IMG/VR virus record: IMGVR_UViG_2579778674_000015
Location: 1 to 19,525 of that record
DNA from: a virus
Taxonomy: Duplodnaviria; Heunggongvirae; Uroviricota; Caudoviricetes
Reading direction: 5' to 3' (one strand)
DNA: 19,525 nucleotides
A model generated the notes under the pieces. It was not told the origin of the DNA. It did not search any database and saw nothing but the letters and a program-made list of their open reading frames with translations. The position numbers and the translations under genes are program-made. Below, in pieces: positions 7,719-19,525 of this stretch (position 1 is its first letter; each line of letters opens with the position of its first letter).

Positions 7719-7951
7719 GCTGCACCTCCGAGATGCTTCATGTTTTTTCCGGAGCGAAAGGTTATAAGCGGCATACTGACGCGGTAATTACGGCCCAGCG
7801 GTTCACAAATCACCTTCTGACATTCACGGTCAACCAGGCTAACACGTAGAACATGCCCTGCAGGCGTGGTGTACCACTGCCCAACTGTAGGAATTGATGT
7901 TTTTTTACGCTGAAATAAACGGTAAATGTTGAGGATCAACGGATTAAGCAT
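7715..7951 (-). CDS. Hypothetical protein (78 aa)
   Basis: GGAGG SD 8 nt before the ATG; stop overlaps the downstream start (ATGA). No recognisable motif. Confidence 0.45.
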   Translation of the reverse strand: MLNPLILNIYRLFQRKKTSIPTVGQWYTTPAGHVLRVSLVDRECQKVICEPLGRNYRVSMPLITFRSGKNMKHLGGAA

Positions 7952-8780
7952 GACGATGCCCTCCGCTGATATTCAGGAGACGGTGAATATGAAAATTAGC
8001 CTTATCCGCCAGACGAATACGTTCAGCCTGCAAGTTAATAAGGGTTTCTACCAGAACCTGATGCGCCTGCGGATCCGAAAGAGTTACCTTGCGCAGAGCA
8101 CGTAGTGCAGTTGTTACATAACTGAGTTTATGTAAGTCTTCATCATTCAGACGAGTGAGGGCTGGGACAGTAGCCATGATGGCAGCCTCCTTGATCGGTG
8201 AAATACTTCCACCACCGGAAACGCCAATTTCGCTGGTGGTGAACTGAACGGGGTTGGCGTAACCGGTGATCAAGGAAACCGGCGCATCTTTCGATGCCCC
8301 CGCCCAGCCCACCATAACTTTGATGTGAGCAAATGCGGACGATAAAAAAGACGCTGGCGCGTCATATATCGCCTTGATCAATTCCAGGACGCCAATCCCG
8401 GCACCCGCTTTATAAGGTGCCTGAACAGTGTAACGTCCCGGAATGGCAGAATCAATGTGCTGGTGGTCCTTCACACTCAACAAAATCACGCCTGAATTTC
8501 CACAAAGGACTAAAGCACTCATGCGGGTAGTCTTTGCGAAGATAGATAACGCGCTGTGTTTCTGGTTCCCAACGAATAACATGGACATAAAGCCCTCTTC
8601 CGTCACGAAACCAGCGGTTAAGTTCCCGCACAACTCGCCCCCCACAGTCAGGTAAAGTTCTCTGTGGTTACTTACAGCCAGGTGATTTGGTAATCTGCAT
8701 TCATGCCGTAACAACAGGTGTTCAGCGACACTGACCACCAGCTGTTGCGACAAACGGTTATTTGCCGTTAAACTGTTCAT
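7944..8780 (-). CDS. Hypothetical protein (278 aa) in the early-right operon
   Basis: Long ORF with GGAG SD, ATGA-coupled to the upstream gene. No Walker or other catalytic motif recognised. Confidence 0.45.
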   Translation of the reverse strand: MNSLTANNRLSQQLVVSVAEHLLLRHECRLPNHLAVSNHRELYLTVGGELCGNLTAGFVTEEGFMSMLFVGNQKHSALSIFAKTTRMSALVLCGNSGVILLSVKDHQHIDSAIPGRYTVQAPYKAGAGIGVLELIKAIYDAPASFLSSAFAHIKVMVGWAGASKDAPVSLITGYANPVQFTTSEIGVSGGGSISPIKEAAIMATVPALTRLNDEDLHKLSYVTTALRALRKVTLSDPQAHQVLVETLINLQAERIRLADKANFHIHRLLNISGGHRHA

Positions 8781-9572: not shown

Positions 9573-9662
9573 ACAATATGTACCTCCGATATACATATTA
9601 CATGATTGAAATGAACCTTCAAGATACTTGTACCTTATCGGTACAAAGGTTTTAATTTCGTT
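9573..9662. promoter_or_regulatory. Divergent immunity-region promoters and operators (pR-like / pRM-like)
   Basis: Inverted repeat TTGTACC-n5-GGTACAA at 9628-9646; ATATGTA-n9-TACATAT at 9576-9598 enclosing the cro SD. Minus-strand -35 TTGAAG (9617-9622) and -10 TAATAT (9595-9600). Plus-strand -10-like TTTAAT (9651-9656) places a start near the cI ATG with no SD, suggesting a leaderless cI mRNA. Confidence 0.45.
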
Positions 9663-10337
9663 ATGAAAACAATCCATGACATCCGGCGGTCTAACGCCAG
9701 AAAACTGAGAGATGGTGTTGGCGGGAATTCTTCCTTTGCCACCATGATTGATCGCGAGCCAACCCAGACCAGCAGGTTTATGGGAGATGGTGCTACTAAA
9801 AATATCGGTGACAGCATGGCGCGGCACATCGAAAAATGTTTCGACCTGCCTGTCGGATGGCTTGATCAAGAACACCAGACCACGAACATCACAAAAAAAC
9901 CTGATGTTTCAATCACTAACAAACAAATAACGTTAGTCCCTGTCATATCATGGGTACAGGCCGGAGCATGGAAAGAAGTTGGCTATTCTGAGGTTGATTT
10001 GAGCACAGCAGAAACTTACCCCTGCCCTGTACCCTGTGGCGAAATGACTTATATCTTGCGGGTGATTGGTGATTCAATGATTGATGAGTACCGCCCTGGA
10101 GACATGATTTTTGTTGATCCCGAAGTCCCTGCCTGCCACGGTGACGACGTTATTGCATTGATGCACGATACAGGCGAAACCACCTTCAAGCGATTGATAG
10201 AAGATGGAACACAGCGTTATCTCAAAGCATTAAACCCAAACTGGCCTGAGCCTTACATTAAGATTAACGGTAATTGCTCTATAATTGGTACAGTGATTTT
10301 CTCGGGAAAACCAAGAAGATACACAATAAAGGCCTAA
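9663..10337 (+). CDS. CI/C2-type phage repressor (N-terminal HTH, C-terminal S24 LexA-like autopeptidase)
   Basis: 224 aa; C-terminal ...LVPVISWVQAGAWKE...LRVIGDSMIDEYRPGDMIFVDPEV...TFKRL...INGNCSIIGTVIF with Ser in GDSM and Lys in TFKRL; N-terminal XRE-type HTH. Confidence 0.85.
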   Translation: MKTIHDIRRSNARKLRDGVGGNSSFATMIDREPTQTSRFMGDGATKNIGDSMARHIEKCFDLPVGWLDQEHQTTNITKKPDVSITNKQITLVPVISWVQAGAWKEVGYSEVDLSTAETYPCPVPCGEMTYILRVIGDSMIDEYRPGDMIFVDPEVPACHGDDVIALMHDTGETTFKRLIEDGTQRYLKALNPNWPEPYIKINGNCSIIGTVIFSGKPRRYTIKA

Positions 10338-10349
10338 TCAATATTTATG

Positions 10350-10372
10350 AACCTGCTTCGGCAGGTTTTTTT
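10350..10372 (+). terminator. Rho-independent terminator after the repressor gene
   Basis: aacctgc-UUCG-gcaggtt followed by a 7-T tract, starting 13 nt after the cI stop. Confidence 0.7.
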
Positions 10373-10376
10373 ATAC

Positions 10377-10409
10377 TTGACAATGTACCCATGAGATACA
10401 TAATGTATC
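10377..10409 (+). promoter_or_regulatory. pL-like promoter with overlapping palindromic operator
   Basis: Consensus -35 TTGACA (10377-10382), 16-nt spacer, -10 CATAAT (10399-10404). Palindrome GATACAT-a-ATGTATC (10395-10409) overlaps the -10; ATGTACC (10384-10390) repeats the pR-region half-site. Confidence 0.5.
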
Positions 10410-10822
10410 CAAAAGAAACATGAGGCAGGCAAGATTCAAACAAAATTTGGTTGTAACACGGCGTATGGCACATGCGTCGTTAGCGGTCTGGGGACGTTAA
10501 AGGGGACAATCCACTTCTTGCTCGGGCAAACAAACCAGGTAGCCGGAATGTGCAAGTCAATGATGATGCTGATAAGACGCCTAACCAGCGTGGCGATCCG
10601 GTTTGACGCCTGGGAAGAGACCAGGGTGCAACGATGAGGGCATTTATAGAGCCGCGACAAAGTGTGGTGCCGTAACTGGCTAAGTGCTCTCAGCGTTGTG
10701 GTAATCCGCGAAATGGCGCGGCGGTAAGTATGGCGGGGTTACTCTTTCCCCGTTGAGGACACCGGATTGTCAGGTTGACCATACGCCTGAGTGACAACCC
10801 CACCACAACAGCCACTGCTTTG

Positions 10823-10868
10823 GCGGTACCAGTTTGTACACTTGCTTCCGGCTGGTACCGCTCTTTTT
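10823..10868 (+). terminator. Rho-independent terminator within the early-left leader
   Basis: Perfect 10-bp stem GCGGTACCAG / CTGGTACCGC (10823-10832, 10852-10861), 19-nt loop, then TCTTTTT. Confidence 0.55.
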
Positions 10869-10957
10869 ACAAAATAGAGAAGAGCATCACCGGACGACGG
10901 GCTCATAACCCAATCCATCCGGGCGGCTGCCACCGCAGGTGTTCTTCTCTGTTTTGT
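10869..10957 (+). other. Long-range 17-bp RNA helix (two G-U wobbles) enclosing 55 nt, upstream of the first early-left gene
   Basis: ACAAAATAGAGAAGAGC (10869-10885) pairs with GTTCTTCTCTGTTTTGT (10941-10957). The two non-Watson-Crick positions are G-U in the plus-strand transcript but C-A mismatches on the other strand. Confidence 0.35.
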
Positions 10958-11005
10958 GGAGAAACCAACCGACCTTGCAGGGTCGATATGATGAGGAGCA
11001 GCAAA

Positions 11006-11368
11006 ATGGCTAGCGAACGCAGTACTGATGTGCAGGCATTTATCGGGGAGCTGGACGGCGGCGTATTTGAAACCAAAATCGGCGCAGTTCTCAGTGAAGT
11101 CGCTTCCGGTGTGATGAACACGAAAACCAAAGGTAAGGTCTCACTCAACCTGGAAATCGAACCATTTGATGAGAACCGTGTGAAAATCAAACACAAACTC
11201 TCATATGTTCGCCCGACTAACCGCGGGAAAATTTCCGAAGAAGACACCACCGAAACGCCGATGTATGTCAATCGCGGTGGTCGCCTGACTATTCTGCAGG
11301 AAGACCAGGGACAATTACTGACTCTTGCCGGTGAACCTGACGGAAAACTACGCGCAGCAGGTCATTAA
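11006..11368 (+). CDS. Hypothetical early-left protein
   Basis: GAGGAG SD 7 nt before ATG at 11006 (MASERSTDVQAF...). The track ORF starting at 10775 crosses the terminator and helix, so the upstream extension is unlikely. Confidence 0.55.
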   Translation: MASERSTDVQAFIGELDGGVFETKIGAVLSEVASGVMNTKTKGKVSLNLEIEPFDENRVKIKHKLSYVRPTNRGKISEEDTTETPMYVNRGGRLTILQEDQGQLLTLAGEPDGKLRAAGH

Positions 11369-14291: not shown

Positions 14292-17200
14292 TCACACGCT
14301 GCGCCTTCGAGAATATTCATTTAATCGCTGATAACGAACATCTTGCTCCAGTTGTGGAGCAGCTTGAACAATTTGAAGCAAGCATTGCCCCAACTCTCGA
14401 GGCCCCCAGTGTTGTTCGGCAATCACGGCATTCAGCAGGGATAGAGCGTCCGCAGGATATCGGCTGCAAATATCTGATTCTAGCAAAAGGCGAACGTCGT
14501 AGCTAAGGTGTTCGAGCGGTTGCAGCCAGTCCTGCACCACTGCCAAAGCCGCCGGAAATTCACCTCGGGCAGCAATCACCATACGAGTCAACGATTCGGA
14601 TATGCGTGGGGTGGCCAAGTTGCGGGACTTTGGCCAAACCTGTTGCCAAAATGGCTGGACACGATTTTTCCAATACTCCTCGCGCTGATCGCCCGCACCT
14701 TCAAGTGCCTGGTATAACGCCTGCGCGGCTACCTCCAGACCTTCTTGTGGAAGAGCACTAATTGCCGTTCGGAACTCCTCCACGGTATATCCCTCGGTAG
14801 GGCCCAGAGCTGCATAAGTCAGGAAAATAGCGAATTGCTGCCGGTGCTCGCCAAGATCAGAATAGTGATTGGCGCTCTCCAAAAAATCTGACTTGAAAGC
14901 TATCAGCAACGGTTCATACAGGCGTGGCGACCAGAGGAAGCCTTCCCACACAGCTTTTGCTTCGACGGGATTACTCCAAGCAAACAAGGGCAATAGATAC
15001 TGTTCGGTCCAAGGTCGATCTACGCGAAAAAATGCGATCAGCCGCGACCCCAGCAACACCCGACCATGGCGGAATAGCTCTATCTGTACATTACACAATT
15101 TGGTGAAAAGTGTTTTCAATTCAACAGGAAGCAAATCATTGTCATTCGGGTTCTGTTTGAACCATAGGGTGATCAGTGATTGCGTGACATGCCCAATGGG
15201 ATGATTGATCGCCGTAGAAACAGGATCATAGGTCTCAATTCCGTTTCGAATGGTGCTAGACTCTGGGCTTGTTTCTATCATCAGAACCCGACGACAAAGG
15301 GCCAGTAGAATCTCCTCGTGGCAGAGGATGGTCTTCGAAGCCTCCTCCATCCACCAAGTGACAGCGTGGGAAATCTCCTGAAGTACTGCGTCAGGCATGT
15401 CAAGCACCAACGGTGCGGCGTACCGCCACGAACGCAAAATCATCCCTGGTTCAGCCCAAGTCTGCAGAGCTTCACGCCACCGACCAACAGGCCACACATC
15501 ATCTTGTGATAGTTTACGTAACGCATACAGACTGTGAAAAAAGCGCGTACGGCAAACATCACTCCAAGTGTCCTCATAGAAAGGCAGTCTTTCTGGCATA
15601 GGCTTTGCGAGCCATTGCACTAATTCCTGCCACTTACGGGGCGCAATGTCGACATCTATACTCTCCTCGAAGCCTGGATCACCGGTTCCGCTCATCCAGT
15701 GAGAGAATTCATCACGCTCGTTGGTTGCCAGTTGCCATTTTGGGTATGCTGTGGATATTTCCGTCAAACGTGTAGCCGCAGACTCTCCCAAAACAAGGCC
15801 CGCTCCCCTGAGCTTCGCTAGACACAACCAGACGGAATGAGCCACCAAATAATGCCACCTGTCTGCTTCCAAATTATCCTCGTACATCTCGCGCGGAGGC
15901 CCTGCCAAGATAGCAGTTTCCAGACGCTCTTGTGCAATTCCTGTCAGATGTCGTCCCTGCAAAACAAACAGTCTGAATACCTCTCGCCGAGTATCCGTGG
16001 CCCACAACCACCATGAACCGTCCTCTAACAACCAATTAACCCACCGCTCAGGTGGTATGCAGTTGTCTTGGCTTGCGGCAAACAGTGCCAGACGTTTGAA
16101 GGTGGGATATGGCAACTCAAACCAATTCTGAGCAATGCGCGAGGCCTGATCGCTGTCTTTGGCTCGAACGGCTAACCATGAATCCCGAAGTAATTCAATC
16201 AGGCTCACCCAATCGCGGAACCCCCGGTTCTGCCAGTGCGGAGTGATGGACGGCAAATCCCAATGCGAGCGGTCGTGACGATCGTCGGACTCTCCCAACT
16301 CCCGCAACAAGTCCAGTGCATCACGCAACAACTGCTGAAAATCTTCCAACAGGTATGGCAAGGACGATTTCCATGACTCGTCAGCAAGGTCGAACAGGGT
16401 TGAACGTACGTAATCAGCAGTCAGCACCAGCTCCCAATCCACCAATTGCTTGATTCGCAAGGGTTCATCAGTGCTGCTCGAATCGTCTTCACTATAGCGA
16501 AACGGCCGCCTCAACATAACCTTGGGAGAAAGCAACCCGCGTAACTCCAAGCGCAATGTAGTCGTCAAGCCTTCATTCTTTAAGCGGTTTTGCCAACGAT
16601 ACAAATCCAGGTTCTGCAATGGCGATTTCACACGACCACTAAGCAGAAGCCGCCATAAAGTAGACATAGGTGGACCAGGAATAGCCAGGGGGGAATGCAA
16701 GAGAATTTCATCTAACTCAGAAGTCTTACGCTCCCGCATCAGTGCTGCTAAGCGATCTAGTTCGCTCTCAATCAGAAACATCCAACGGTCGTGTATTTGT
16801 CCGCCGCGTTCAGCAATCCATATGATCAACCTAGGGTCGCCCAGATAACGAACTAGCCAACGGGCTATATGGGACATTACGTCATCCCATTTGCTAGCAC
16901 TGACACATCCAGAAACCAGCGACATCTGCGGGGCCAGCTCATAGGGCGCAGGACGCTGAACCAGACTGAATCGGAGTTTCGGGTCAATTTCGACATGCGG
17001 AGATACACAAAAGCGTGGCAGATCGCTGTATTTAAATCGTTCGTCCGAGAAAGCTTTCAATAACCAATCCAGCGGCGGTGCAGGATTGAGTTCCGCAAAG
17101 CGTTTTGCTGGTAAACCTGATTTATCTGACAAGGCCCACAACATCCGACCAACGAAATCGTCCTGACGAGTGCTGTCCTGCGGGCGGGCCAGAGCATGTT

Positions 17201-18119
17201 TGACGACTATAGCCTTTTTGCCCTGTATACCATCTCGATAAGTATCTGCCCAAGCGTGCAACGTTTGATGCAGCACTGAATGATCAGTGGAGCCCGCCGG
17301 TACGGTGTAAAGGATAGGAGTGACCCCTTTGGCCTCCCACTCGATGGCTTTCCGGTGCTCCTGCCCCGGCTCACACTCCCCCAGTGCCCATACTTGTGGT
17401 GTGACTTCACCGAGCCTCCGATCTGCTGCAAGCGCATCCATCATGTAGCGCAGTACCGGGTCGTTGATGCTGTAGCCAACGAAGCAGACCACATAGTTAC
17501 GAAATAACTCACTCACAAAGCGAGCTGCCCAACGCTCAGTGAGATAAGCCAAGCCAAAGTCACCGCTGGTAACAACCAGACGATTCAGGGCAGTATCATC
17601 CGCCTTTTCCGGTAACAGCCCATGCAGGTATACAAGTCCATCCCAGCGGCTGTTTTTTGGAATTGGCAGCATCGGCGCTACATAGGCCTGAAAAGCCTGG
17701 CCTGTACGTTTAGCTGCCACATGAAAGAGACGGTCAAAGTTGGTAGTGACCAATCGAAGGGCACCCTCGCGGCTACGGGCTAAACGTAACAGCGCCGCCT
17801 GAGTATCAATAGCGCCCCTACGACGGAGCTTTGGCTTAAGGGCTTTTTCCAACGCGCGTCGGACGGCTATACGCTGCCCTGGTAAGCGCCGTTCCAGCAA
17901 ATCTAATGTGCCGTCAAATTGCCCACGCTCGAAAACCTCACGCTCAATTTCTGAAAGTGTTGTTCCGTTCCTCTGGTAAATTAGTTCTACCAACCCTTTG
18001 AAACCAGGTAAACCAGCAGGGTAGGAAATGCCTGCTCCACAGAAGAACACAACGCGCCCTTCCTCGTGCGCCTGCAAAAGCTCATCAGGAATATCAGGGC
18101 CGTTGGTAATGAATTGCAT
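14292..18119 (-). CDS. Large SIR2-domain protein (1275 aa): N-terminal sirtuin-like NADase domain plus ~1000-aa unassigned Trp-rich C-terminal region; candidate single-gene anti-phage defence
   Basis: Uninterrupted 3.8-kb ORF, strong SD AGGAGG 7 nt before ATG at 18119. N-terminus has VVFFCGAGISYPAGLPGF (glycine-rich NAD-binding loop), LVTTNFDRL (N127) and LVYLHGLL (H166), matching the Asn/His arrangement of SIR2 defence NADases. The remainder shows no motif I recognise. Confidence 0.8.
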   Translation of the reverse strand: MQFITNGPDIPDELLQAHEEGRVVFFCGAGISYPAGLPGFKGLVELIYQRNGTTLSEIEREVFERGQFDGTLDLLERRLPGQRIAVRRALEKALKPKLRRRGAIDTQAALLRLARSREGALRLVTTNFDRLFHVAAKRTGQAFQAYVAPMLPIPKNSRWDGLVYLHGLLPEKADDTALNRLVVTSGDFGLAYLTERWAARFVSELFRNYVVCFVGYSINDPVLRYMMDALAADRRLGEVTPQVWALGECEPGQEHRKAIEWEAKGVTPILYTVPAGSTDHSVLHQTLHAWADTYRDGIQGKKAIVVKHALARPQDSTRQDDFVGRMLWALSDKSGLPAKRFAELNPAPPLDWLLKAFSDERFKYSDLPRFCVSPHVEIDPKLRFSLVQRPAPYELAPQMSLVSGCVSASKWDDVMSHIARWLVRYLGDPRLIIWIAERGGQIHDRWMFLIESELDRLAALMRERKTSELDEILLHSPLAIPGPPMSTLWRLLLSGRVKSPLQNLDLYRWQNRLKNEGLTTTLRLELRGLLSPKVMLRRPFRYSEDDSSSTDEPLRIKQLVDWELVLTADYVRSTLFDLADESWKSSLPYLLEDFQQLLRDALDLLRELGESDDRHDRSHWDLPSITPHWQNRGFRDWVSLIELLRDSWLAVRAKDSDQASRIAQNWFELPYPTFKRLALFAASQDNCIPPERWVNWLLEDGSWWLWATDTRREVFRLFVLQGRHLTGIAQERLETAILAGPPREMYEDNLEADRWHYLVAHSVWLCLAKLRGAGLVLGESAATRLTEISTAYPKWQLATNERDEFSHWMSGTGDPGFEESIDVDIAPRKWQELVQWLAKPMPERLPFYEDTWSDVCRTRFFHSLYALRKLSQDDVWPVGRWREALQTWAEPGMILRSWRYAAPLVLDMPDAVLQEISHAVTWWMEEASKTILCHEEILLALCRRVLMIETSPESSTIRNGIETYDPVSTAINHPIGHVTQSLITLWFKQNPNDNDLLPVELKTLFTKLCNVQIELFRHGRVLLGSRLIAFFRVDRPWTEQYLLPLFAWSNPVEAKAVWEGFLWSPRLYEPLLIAFKSDFLESANHYSDLGEHRQQFAIFLTYAALGPTEGYTVEEFRTAISALPQEGLEVAAQALYQALEGAGDQREEYWKNRVQPFWQQVWPKSRNLATPRISESLTRMVIAARGEFPAALAVVQDWLQPLEHLSYDVRLLLESDICSRYPADALSLLNAVIAEQHWGPRELGQCLLQIVQAAPQLEQDVRYQRLNEYSRRRSV

Positions 18120-18301: not shown

Positions 18302-19525
18302 TCATTTCGAGCCTGAACGAGTACAAGTAACAATCGATTCAACTCTCTCCCACCATGCCTGGTAGGCTTTACGCTGTTCTTCTAGATAATCACTCTTGTC
18401 ATAAACTTGCCATACACCTGGCAGTTTATGACCGAGCATTATTTCAGCAATATGAGGCGCAGTAAGATCAGAAAAGTTTGTTCGTGCTGTTCGTCTCAAA
18501 TCATGAAGAGACCAGTGAGGAAATTGATACCCCAAACGCCGCCATGCGTACTGCATTAAATTGTAAGGCAGCGACTGCAATGATGTCCGACCAACTGGTT
18601 CCCTGCTTCCTTCCTTAGTAAAAAGCATATCGGAACCGTTGTTCATAGAGATAACGTATTTTATAAGCTCTTCAACCGGTTCAATAATGGGCCGCTTTAG
18701 CGGTTCGCCTGTTATATCCCCTGTCTTATGTCGTTCTGGTGGTACAGTCCATATTTTATTAATGAAATCAAAATCGTCCACCTTGGCAGTAATTAGCTCT
18801 GAACTACGGCAACCAAAATGCAGCAATAGTTTAATGAAGGCCCGGTATTTAGGAACCATTCGAGAACCATCGATCGCAGCATAAAGGATTTTAATTTCAT
18901 CATGTGTCAGAAACCGTTTCTTCTGACCTTTACGGATATCCATATCTTTACCCGTGATATCCGACAGCGGGCGAGTTTCAATGAGCTTTCTCTTATACGC
19001 CCAGACATGGGCCTGCTTTGCGTTAATTAGCAATCGGTCTGCTATTGCTGGAGTCTTAGTGCTAAGAGGCTCCAGGACTTCTAACCAATCATGCAATGTA
19101 GCTGCATCGTGAGGGATATTCCCGATTTTAGAGAACAGGTGCAGCTCAAACGAGCGGAGTATCTGTTCAGAACCTTTTTTATTTTTTACACAATATGCTT
19201 CATACCAAGCACGGATCACAGATTCTACCGTCATGGCTTCAGTAGCTTTACGTTTTTCTGCCAGCTTGACCAATCGTGGATTGCGGTTTGACTCGAGTTC
19301 ACCACGAAGACGGATAACTTCTTCTCTGGCCTCTTTTAGTCCAGTTGCCGGGTAAGTTCCGATATCAAGACGCTCACCTTTCCCCGCCCACTGATAACGA
19401 TATTGGAACACTACGCGACCTTTCGGTGATACTCTAACAGACAGACCATCACGATCGGATTTAACCAAAACCTTATCACGTTCCTTTCCAACGACTGAAC
19501 GCAACCACGCATCAGACAGCGCCAT
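18302..19525 (-). CDS. int: Tyrosine integrase (P4-type, N-terminal arm-binding domain plus catalytic domain)
   Basis: 407 aa; start codon is the last three bases of the window (MALSDAWLRS...). Typical N-terminus (GLSVRVSPKGRVVFQYRYQWAGKGERLDIGTYP), HDLRRTARTN box and C-terminal Tyr region (WQVYDKSDY). Confidence 0.9.
   Translation of the reverse strand: MALSDAWLRSVVGKERDKVLVKSDRDGLSVRVSPKGRVVFQYRYQWAGKGERLDIGTYPATGLKEAREEVIRLRGELESNRNPRLVKLAEKRKATEAMTVESVIRAWYEAYCVKNKKGSEQILRSFELHLFSKIGNIPHDAATLHDWLEVLEPLSTKTPAIADRLLINAKQAHVWAYKRKLIETRPLSDITGKDMDIRKGQKKRFLTHDEIKILYAAIDGSRMVPKYRAFIKLLLHFGCRSSELITAKVDDFDFINKIWTVPPERHKTGDITGEPLKRPIIEPVEELIKYVISMNNGSDMLFTKEGSREPVGRTSLQSLPYNLMQYAWRRLGYQFPHWSLHDLRRTARTNFSDLTAPHIAEIMLGHKLPGVWQVYDKSDYLEEQRKAYQAWWERVESIVTCTRSGSK

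Follow-up and report, generated by a model that had tools for sequence, protein, structure and literature searches.

A probable DicF-type RNA processing cassette as the early-left leader of an SfV/e14-like lambdoid prophage

What could be the use of some 600 nucleotides (nt) of early phage transcript that encode no protein? The question is raised by positions 10410-11005 of a stretch of viral DNA of 19,525 nt (IMG/VR record IMGVR_UViG_2579778674_000015), called here the window, whose host element is an SfV/e14-like lambdoid prophage. In the identical prophage of enterotoxigenic Escherichia coli (ETEC) H10407, the NCBI Prokaryotic Genome Annotation Pipeline (PGAP) gives the gene order ymfK, 668 bases without annotation, yfdP, a gene of the YfdQ family and yfdR: the interval is therefore the non-coding leader of a repressor-controlled early-left operon. 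A first-pass annotation, made from the letters alone, had seen in it a strong terminator and a 17-base-pair (bp) helix, and had proposed protein-independent antitermination, control by ribonuclease III (RNase III), or a small RNA. In our judgement the leader is probably an RNA processing cassette of the DicF type, most likely one that combines a leaky terminator with RNase III cuts, and not a new antiterminator.

All features discussed below lie on the plus strand unless stated otherwise. Compared with phage sequences by BLAST, the whole leader proves to be a mosaic of RNA modules. One of them, Element B (10695-10809), is a branched domain closed by the pairing of GUUGUGGU (10695-10702) with ACCACAAC (10802-10809). 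Over 123 nt (E = 8e-45), the segment 10695-10817 has 89.4% identity with the part of the K-12 prophage Qin that lies directly upstream of dicF, and the 17 nt that come next (UUUGGCGGUACCAGUUU) match the core of DicF. Therefore the terminator of the leader sits exactly at the DicF position of the dicBF operon: at the end of the conserved precursor segment, in a repressor-controlled operon of the dicBF type. Judged by its sequence, Element B is a homologue of the 5' part that forms the body of the 190-nt DicF precursor; it also resembles the "dicF-like region" of the P1 ban leader, with compensatory changes between the window and K-12 on one side and P1 on the other.

The hairpin in the DicF position (10818-10868) is an intrinsic terminator or attenuator, and would form the 3' end of a diverged DicF-like RNA. 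Its GC-rich stem of 13 bp (10822-10834 with 10850-10862) stands directly before a U-tract on the transcribed strand, with UCUUUUU following and the last five U at 10864-10868, for a folding energy of -21.2 kcal/mol; the strong terminator of the first-pass annotation is thus real (10822-10868), and a consensus scan overlooked it only because its loop exceeds 8 nt. Across loci the stem covaries and the U-tract is invariant; the loop differs widely among genera, while the base of the stem is kept, and the loop UACxCUUGCUUCC is kept among the copies of E. coli and Shigella. The hairpin shares with DicF, aligned in register, the core UUUGGCGGUAxCAGUUU.

The hairpin is nevertheless a diverged variant of a DicF-type cassette, and not a member of the Rfam family DicF (RF00039), whose gathering threshold is 48 bits and which gives 76.7 bits on the K-12 control: no match to the hairpin appears at E <= 10, even in a search limited to 91 nt. 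Similarly, 20 related loci show neither DicF nor STnc100 in their yfdP leaders at the gathering threshold, and the yfdP leader L010 shows none at E <= 10. The loop of the window hairpin is UUUGUACACUUGCUUCC: the CUCC anti-Shine-Dalgarno core is absent, and so is the complementarity to the ribosome-binding site of ftsZ (UUUUACUCCG). Duplex energies with ftsZ (duplexfold) were discarded, since genuine DicF itself does not stand out by them, and no complementary target of the hairpin was found within the window. The Pas small RNA, the subject of a preprint, belongs to the late region and has no bearing on the leader. The proposal that the leader encodes a small RNA is supported, in that a terminator hairpin stands in the DicF position, although this hairpin has diverged beyond the reach of the Rfam model. 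A scan with Rfam, one of the checks named in the first-pass annotation, returns no match to the leader at the gathering threshold or at E <= 10. In K-12, the spacer between dicF and dicB (L039, 2433-2642) has a weak Rfam match to STnc100, at 34 bits for a threshold of 47, which hints at a relation between STnc100-type RNAs and this spacer.

The 3' end of the 53-nt form of DicF comes from Rho-independent termination, and the 72-nt form from RNase III processing of the full-length transcript (PMC5069750); the 5' end of a 190-nt species is made by RNase III, and that of the 53-nt form by RNase E (bioRxiv 10.1101/2023.04.14.536235). On the K-12 Qin sequence, a 21-bp helix begins a few bases after the U-tract of DicF, and its 3' arm ends just before the Shine-Dalgarno sequence of dicB. 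The point 19 nt past the annotated 3' end of dicF, which corresponds to the 72-nt form, falls inside the 5' arm of this helix; the 190-nt species has its 5' end within the 3' strand of a further long helix, located just 5' of the conserved segment.

The window has a counterpart for each. Helix 1 (10628-10699) pairs 10628-10646 with 10681-10699, encloses two small hairpins and, in folding, has 18 bp with one mismatch: it corresponds to the Qin helix that lies upstream of the conserved segment. The domain of helix 2 (10864-10962) pairs 10864-10888 with 10938-10962, and contains the arms P2 (10890-10922) and P3 (10923-10936). The 17-bp helix of the first-pass annotation is real, but its length was given too short: it has 25 contiguous pairs, and starts inside the U-tract. 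Six of these are G-U pairs, which on the minus strand would be A-C mismatches, and in all the modules of the leader the plus-strand fold is the more stable, which fits the earlier suggestion that the helix functions as RNA. The fold of 10860-11010 reaches z = -5.8. A substrate of RNase III is a near-continuous RNA duplex of at least some 20 bp; helix 2, with 25 bp, and helix 1, with 18, are both candidate sites.

Covariation, also proposed earlier as a check, supports the two helices. For helix 2, we aligned 19 yfdP leaders from more than ten genera and counted all 45 pairs of helix 2, P2, P3 and of a further hairpin, P4: 93.7% of the cells are paired, versus 42-54% when the pairing is slid, 14 pairs have changed on both sides, and none of 500 shuffles reaches the score. 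For helix 1, the alignment covers nine lineages, among them K-12 Qin, Klebsiella phages and Stenotrophomonas phages, and the corresponding values are 91% versus 28-59%, with six pairs changed on both sides and, again, no shuffle out of 500 reaching the score. The proposal of RNase III control is thus supported by homology and architecture, since both helices match those of Qin and covary; cleavage itself is predicted by analogy.

How widespread is this arrangement? We compared 31 loci that encode homologues of YfdP in different species, and about 20 of them carry the module formed by the hairpin, the U-tract and helix 2. They belong to the genera Escherichia, Shigella, Mangrovibacter, Enterobacter, Atlantibacter, Leclercia, Kosakonia, Phytobacter, Scandinavium, Pseudocitrobacter, Superficieibacter and Providencia. 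In viral contigs, the helix 2 module also stands 5' of first genes that are rdgC-like or yfdR-like: it is therefore a general early-left leader, not one specific to yfdP. In phage phiV10 (2500-2900) and in a Phytobacter locus (L019, 2128-2860) the cassette is the same, but the slot of Element B is taken by a true transfer RNA (tRNA), tRNA-Arg(UCU) in the former and, according to ARAGORN, Ile(AAU) in the latter, with the DicF-like terminator hairpin after the tRNA. This replacement suggests that the slot is a processing unit that sets the 5' end of the hairpin RNA.

Two loci depart from this pattern. In SfV (L002, 3095-3880), which has the same immunity region, Elements A (described below) and B are replaced by orf33, whose product of 98 amino acids is not arginine-rich, and by another branched domain; this domain is still closed by GUUGUGGUG and CACCACAAC, so that the closing stem looks like a recombination or module junction. 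In the K-12 prophage CPS-53 (L165, 1880-2085), the yfdP leader is replaced by tandem repeats similar to GACGGGTCAGATTTTGA, and the window has no more than the final 24 nt ahead of the start codon in common with it. This loss rules out CPS-53 as a source of transcript data.

Homology, order of modules, strand, conserved base-pairing and absence of a conserved open reading frame (ORF) are observed; from these we infer the efficiency of termination, the RNase III cuts and a possible role of the products in trans. On derepression, transcription would start about 7 nt past the -10 hexamer, near 10411, and run through Element A, helix 1, Element B, and the hairpin in the DicF position with its U-tract. 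Most polymerases would probably stop at the hairpin, leaving an RNA of about 455 nt, from which RNase III, cutting in helix 1, could release a species of about 180 nt composed of Element B and the hairpin, which would match the 190-nt DicF precursor known from Qin. The polymerases that read through would go on to make the 3' arm of helix 2, which would pair with the U-tract and the bases after it; a cut by RNase III in helix 2 would then detach the small RNA, and the yfdP-yfdQ-yfdR message would acquire a new 5' end, some 45 nt ahead of its start codon. The terminator would thus be an attenuator that sets the amount of early-left message, and the helices would set its maturation.

Several points weigh against this model. 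The hairpin fails the Rfam DicF model; the ACUCC loop that pairs with the Shine-Dalgarno sequence of ftsZ is lost, so that the hairpin may do no more than terminate transcription, with no regulatory role; and the window does not keep the AU-rich site at which RNase E generates the 53-nt DicF 5' end. A 13-bp GC-rich terminator must be passed if the early-left genes are to be expressed, by means that the model leaves unaccounted for, and every processing step is transferred from Qin by analogy. Finally, Element A is the part of the leader that the model explains least.

Element A (10445-10640) is a conserved structured RNA domain with hairpins at 10458-10480, 10500-10519, 10577-10591 and 10609-10625. 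Its invariant single strands include CCAGGUAGCCGGAAUGUGCAAG and GGCGAUYCGGUKUGAC, compensatory changes are found in two hairpins, and G-U pairs fix the strand. In an alignment of 20 sequences, 19 of them distinct, 93.6% of the cells of the hairpins are paired, versus 38-49% when slid, and no shuffle out of 500 reaches the covariation score; six pairs have changed on both sides, a count that is not significant by itself (225 of the 500 shuffles reach 6). Rfam has no match to Element A, and no reading frame is conserved in it. Copies exist in P1, where the element starts 2 nt after tRNA-Ile and forms the 5' untranslated region of ban; in phiV10-like phages, where it stands before helix 1 and tRNA-Arg(UCU); and in more than 120 IMG/VR contigs. 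Shorter or diverged versions occur in Kosakonia, Phytobacter, Klebsiella phages and a Stenotrophomonas phage, again following a CI-like gene, and the order of the cassette is shared with the phiV10-like phages, the Klebsiella phages and one Stenotrophomonas phage. In Stenotrophomonas phage BUCT708 (L263, 900-1200), a full Element A, helix 1 and a DicF-like terminator lie directly downstream of a CI/helix-turn-helix gene; as this phage is listed with a Stenotrophomonas host, the host range of the cassette is unexpectedly wide. In P1, Element A is followed by AUUUUCUGGUGA, which matches the 5' end of DicF.

A second conserved motif is the near-invariant hairpin CGGG-CUCAUAA-CCC followed by AAUC (10898-10915), a look-alike of the anticodon stem-loop of the initiator tRNA: CGGGCUCAUAACCC (10898-10911) is identical at 14 of 14 positions to that of E. 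coli tRNA-fMet, whose sequence was verified. Across genera, in an alignment of leaders and in 143 copies from viral contigs, GGCUCAU..CCCAAUC is fully or almost fully conserved, while the stems beside it covary. Neither ARAGORN nor Rfam (RF00005) finds a tRNA or transfer-messenger RNA in the window, and the likeness is that of a 14-nt anticodon arm only.

Could the leader be, after all, an antiterminator? One way would be that of the put sites of HK022, where read-through of terminators depends on the zinc-binding domain of the beta' subunit of RNA polymerase: Element A, or the whole leader, would make the polymerase resistant to terminators in cis, and the early-left operon would be expressed without N. 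Indeed, like putL, Element A begins soon after the promoter, at about 35 nt, and precedes a strong terminator; there is no N-like gene, as the first-pass annotation rightly noted; the phage must get past the terminator somehow; and the first hairpin of Element A shares ACGGCG...CAUGCGUCG with stem I of the HK022 put sites. The 9-mer common to both, CATGCGTCG, looked promising at first and was rejected by a covariance model. Seven put RNAs went into this model, R1, which scores the HK022 and HK639 controls at 57-95 bits and has no match in 10400-11005 at E <= 10 with filters off; its sole weak match, at 8690-8778 (11.3 bits, E = 0.27), lies within a coding sequence and does not exceed chance. 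By this model the leader lacks the conserved two-stem arrangement of put RNAs, with its stem I ACGGCG/CGUCG, and the invariant core of stem II, GGCGGGYUCAGGRNGARCGGCAAU, is absent. Sites of the HK022 type stand after both early promoters, although HK639 has only one; here, no second copy follows the early-right promoter, and no module of the leader is repeated elsewhere in the window. Moreover, in P1 Element A is far from the promoter, after a dicF-like terminator and three tRNA genes, read-through occurs in Qin without Element A, and the structured helix 2 lies downstream of the terminator, not upstream. The put-like proposal of the first-pass annotation is consequently quite unlikely. We hold very unlikely the other way, that of a nut site, in which the U-tract and the hairpin with the 7-nt loop would be boxA and boxB, loading Nus factors or an unrecognised N-like protein and serving antitermination or protection against Rho. 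Like lambda nutL, the supposed site does lie in the leader of the first gene read from pL, the near-invariant hairpin comes about 30 nt after the boxA-like bases, and CGCUCUUUUUACAAAA, with its homologues CGCCCUUUUUACACAA, resembles the boxA of lambda nutR, CGCUCUUACACA. However, the closeness of the U-tract to boxA that had been pointed out earlier is superficial: CGCTCTTTTTACAAAA needs an indel to be aligned, its bases are paired in helix 2 and vary among homologues at the GCUCUUU positions, and matches to boxA in the window are at chance level. No N-like ORF accompanies the supposed site, the hairpin is present in a single copy, and the early-right operon has no second site: the lambda arrangement, with boxA, boxB, a cognate N and a second, rightward site, is not found here.

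Other alternatives concern the product of the leader. It is possible, and we mention it with some reserve, that the main product acts in trans, either as a DicF-like small RNA with new targets or, in the case of Element A, as a sponge or a stable RNA; yfdP would then be affected only secondarily. A hairpin in the DicF position with a Rho-independent 3' end is typical of small RNAs that bind Hfq, its loop is conserved in E. coli and Shigella, and Element A has invariant unpaired stretches and moves among unrelated types of phages beside tRNA genes. However, the loop varies so widely among genera that no conserved seed is evident, and both the ftsZ motif and any target in the window are wanting. 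It is unlikely that the 14-nt hairpin is a mimic of the anticodon arm of the initiator tRNA, able to bind the P site of the 30S subunit, initiation factor 3 or methionyl-tRNA synthetase, or to act as a decoy for nucleases that attack tRNA-fMet, with an effect on early-left translation or on the defences of the host. The operator of thrS, which mimics the anticodon arm of tRNA-Thr, is a precedent for such mimicry; the identity includes three G-C pairs, the loop is near-invariant while the flanking stems covary, and related phages have real tRNA genes in the neighbouring slot. On the other hand, the match is confined to the hairpin, some leaders have CUCAUUC or CGG variants, the start codon is about 95 nt away, and the hairpin could also be a relic of a tRNA gene or a motif for tertiary contacts. 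A bolder combination, in which Element A is an undescribed family of phage RNAs, the look-alike is a functional mimic, and the leader is an RNA-based unit for host takeover or counter-defence, seems doubtful to us. If it were true, Element A would travel with tRNA genes and DicF-type cassettes across lambdoid, P1-like, epsilon15-like, Klebsiella and Stenotrophomonas phages, and the leader, more than a passive attenuator, would control read-through or titrate a factor that binds or cleaves tRNA. That the leader hides a small protein gene is extremely improbable. The candidates are an ORF of 39 amino acids on the plus strand (10518-10637) and two on the minus strand (10436-10660 and 10739-10933): the records of Ayreon, cdtI and mEp460 list such ORFs as hypothetical proteins, no stop interrupts the minus frame through Element A in either the window or phiV10, and 10739-10933 matches phrog_3651. 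But 10739-10933 has an internal stop in 7 of the 7 close homologues tested, and the phrog_3651 match is best explained by conserved nucleotides that were annotated as ORFs, with stops in close relatives. Across 10445-10700, indels of 1 nt and 4 nt and stops shift the frames among the window, phiV10 and P1, and a 26-codon ORF at 10420 meets stops in close homologues. The small ORFs of the leader have no Pfam match, PGAP calls no gene between ymfK and yfdP in the H10407 prophage, and the G-U pairs and compensatory changes fit a plus-strand RNA. The first-pass annotation was therefore right in seeing no credible ORF ahead of the ATG at 11006.

We now turn to the surroundings of the DicF-type cassette. 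On its 5' side is ymfK (9663-10337 in the window), which PGAP describes in H10407 as a LexA-family cI-like repressor, and whose transcript ends at an intrinsic terminator (10349-10375) made of an 8-bp GC stem, a tetraloop and a T-run, annotated as a terminator in SfV and Ayreon. Directly 3' of it lies the pL-like sigma-70 promoter already recognised in the first-pass annotation (10377-10404), TTGACA-16 nt-CATAAT, with 11 of 12 consensus matches. An operator-like palindrome, ATGTACCCATGAGATACATA (10383-10402), stands between its hexamers and is a copy of the operator-like site at 9578-9597, in the intergenic region of cI and cro: on the strength of this repetition, the promoter is very probably under repressor control. 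The promoter segment, to about 10434, moves together with the immunity module. On the 3' side, the P4 hairpin (10970-10985), which covaries, is followed by the Shine-Dalgarno sequence GAGGAG (10993-10998) and by the start of yfdP, placed at 11006 by PGAP and supported by a match to phrog_204. The 671 bases of 10340-11010 are 100% identical in ETEC H10407 and several other E. coli chromosomes, and 98% identical in phages 2H10 and cdtI, in Ayreon and in Stx2c phages; about 890 of 5,426 complete E. coli genomes hold most of this 671-nt query.

Two observations were made outside the leader. In the early-right operon, on the minus strand, Rfam recognises a C4 antisense RNA (8232-8319, 82 bits) and isrK (8344-8420, 64 bits), back to back, its only matches in the whole window. 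They lie inside an ORF, 7944-8780, called "immunity region" in phage records and "ash family" by PGAP: the pair looks like an antirepressor control module of the P1 immI/Gifsy-1 IsrK type, and the ORF call is doubtful. At the end of the window that bears the attachment site, an ORF of 1275 amino acids (14292-18119, minus strand), annotated in H10407 as the anti-phage defence sirtuin Dsr1, adjoins the integrase (18302-19525, minus strand) and is prophage cargo.

One study finds no match to DicF or DicB in sequenced phage genomes (PMC5069750), and DicF has so far been treated as a relic of a defective prophage. In the present case a diverged DicF-type cassette makes up the early-left leader of phages that are intact, SfV, cdtI, mEp460 and Ayreon among them. 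Its parts are a candidate RNase III helix, then either a precursor body or a tRNA, the terminator hairpin and one more candidate RNase III helix. It offers a testable model of how lambdoid phages that lack N meter and mature their early-left transcripts. It also brings out two conserved RNA motifs that are absent from Rfam, Element A and the initiator-tRNA-like hairpin, in a region that annotators fill with spurious small ORFs.

How does the leader compare with known systems? The likeness is with Qin dicBF (Faubladier et al. 1990, in the summary given by PMC5069750 and bioRxiv 10.1101/2023.04.14.536235), where a cI-like gene (dicA), a promoter, a leader and a first ORF follow each other in the same order in a repressor-controlled early operon. 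A GGCGG...CCGCC hairpin with its U-tract and the DicF core stands at the same place, one long helix lies directly upstream of the precursor body, and a second ends just before the Shine-Dalgarno sequence of the next ORF. The differences are that helix 2 includes the U-tract in the window, whereas in Qin it starts a few bases later; that the 5' arm of DicF, UUUCUGGUGACG, and its ftsZ-pairing loop are both replaced in the window; that ydfABC is absent, with Element A in its place; that the downstream gene is yfdP, or an rdgC-like or yfdR-like gene in other copies, instead of dicB; and that helix 2 encloses an initiator-tRNA-like hairpin, which Qin lacks.

The ban operon of P1 (NC_005856) has Element B and the terminator hairpin at 68739-68892, annotated "dicF-like region", and Element A at 71010-71194, both on the transcribed strand of a C1-repressed operon; however, the modules there come in the reverse order, and a stretch of 2 kb with genes for tRNA (Asn/Thr/Ile) and tci separates them. 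HK022 putL and putR are likewise cis-acting structured RNAs, found just past pL in a lambdoid phage without N, and share a short hairpin motif with the leader; but a put site has about 70 nt and two stems, whereas Element A has about 200 nt and at least five helices, is present in a single copy, and occurs also in contexts that are not close to a promoter. Other long untranslated leaders are that of lambda N, with nutL and an RNase III hairpin, and that of metY-nusA-infB, with a tRNA-fMet, leaky terminators and an RNase III stem. They have no sequence similarity to the leader, and the phage of the window has no N protein; yet both have an RNase III-sensitive helix just before the Shine-Dalgarno sequence of the first gene, and in metY a leaky terminator comes after a tRNA or tRNA-like unit.

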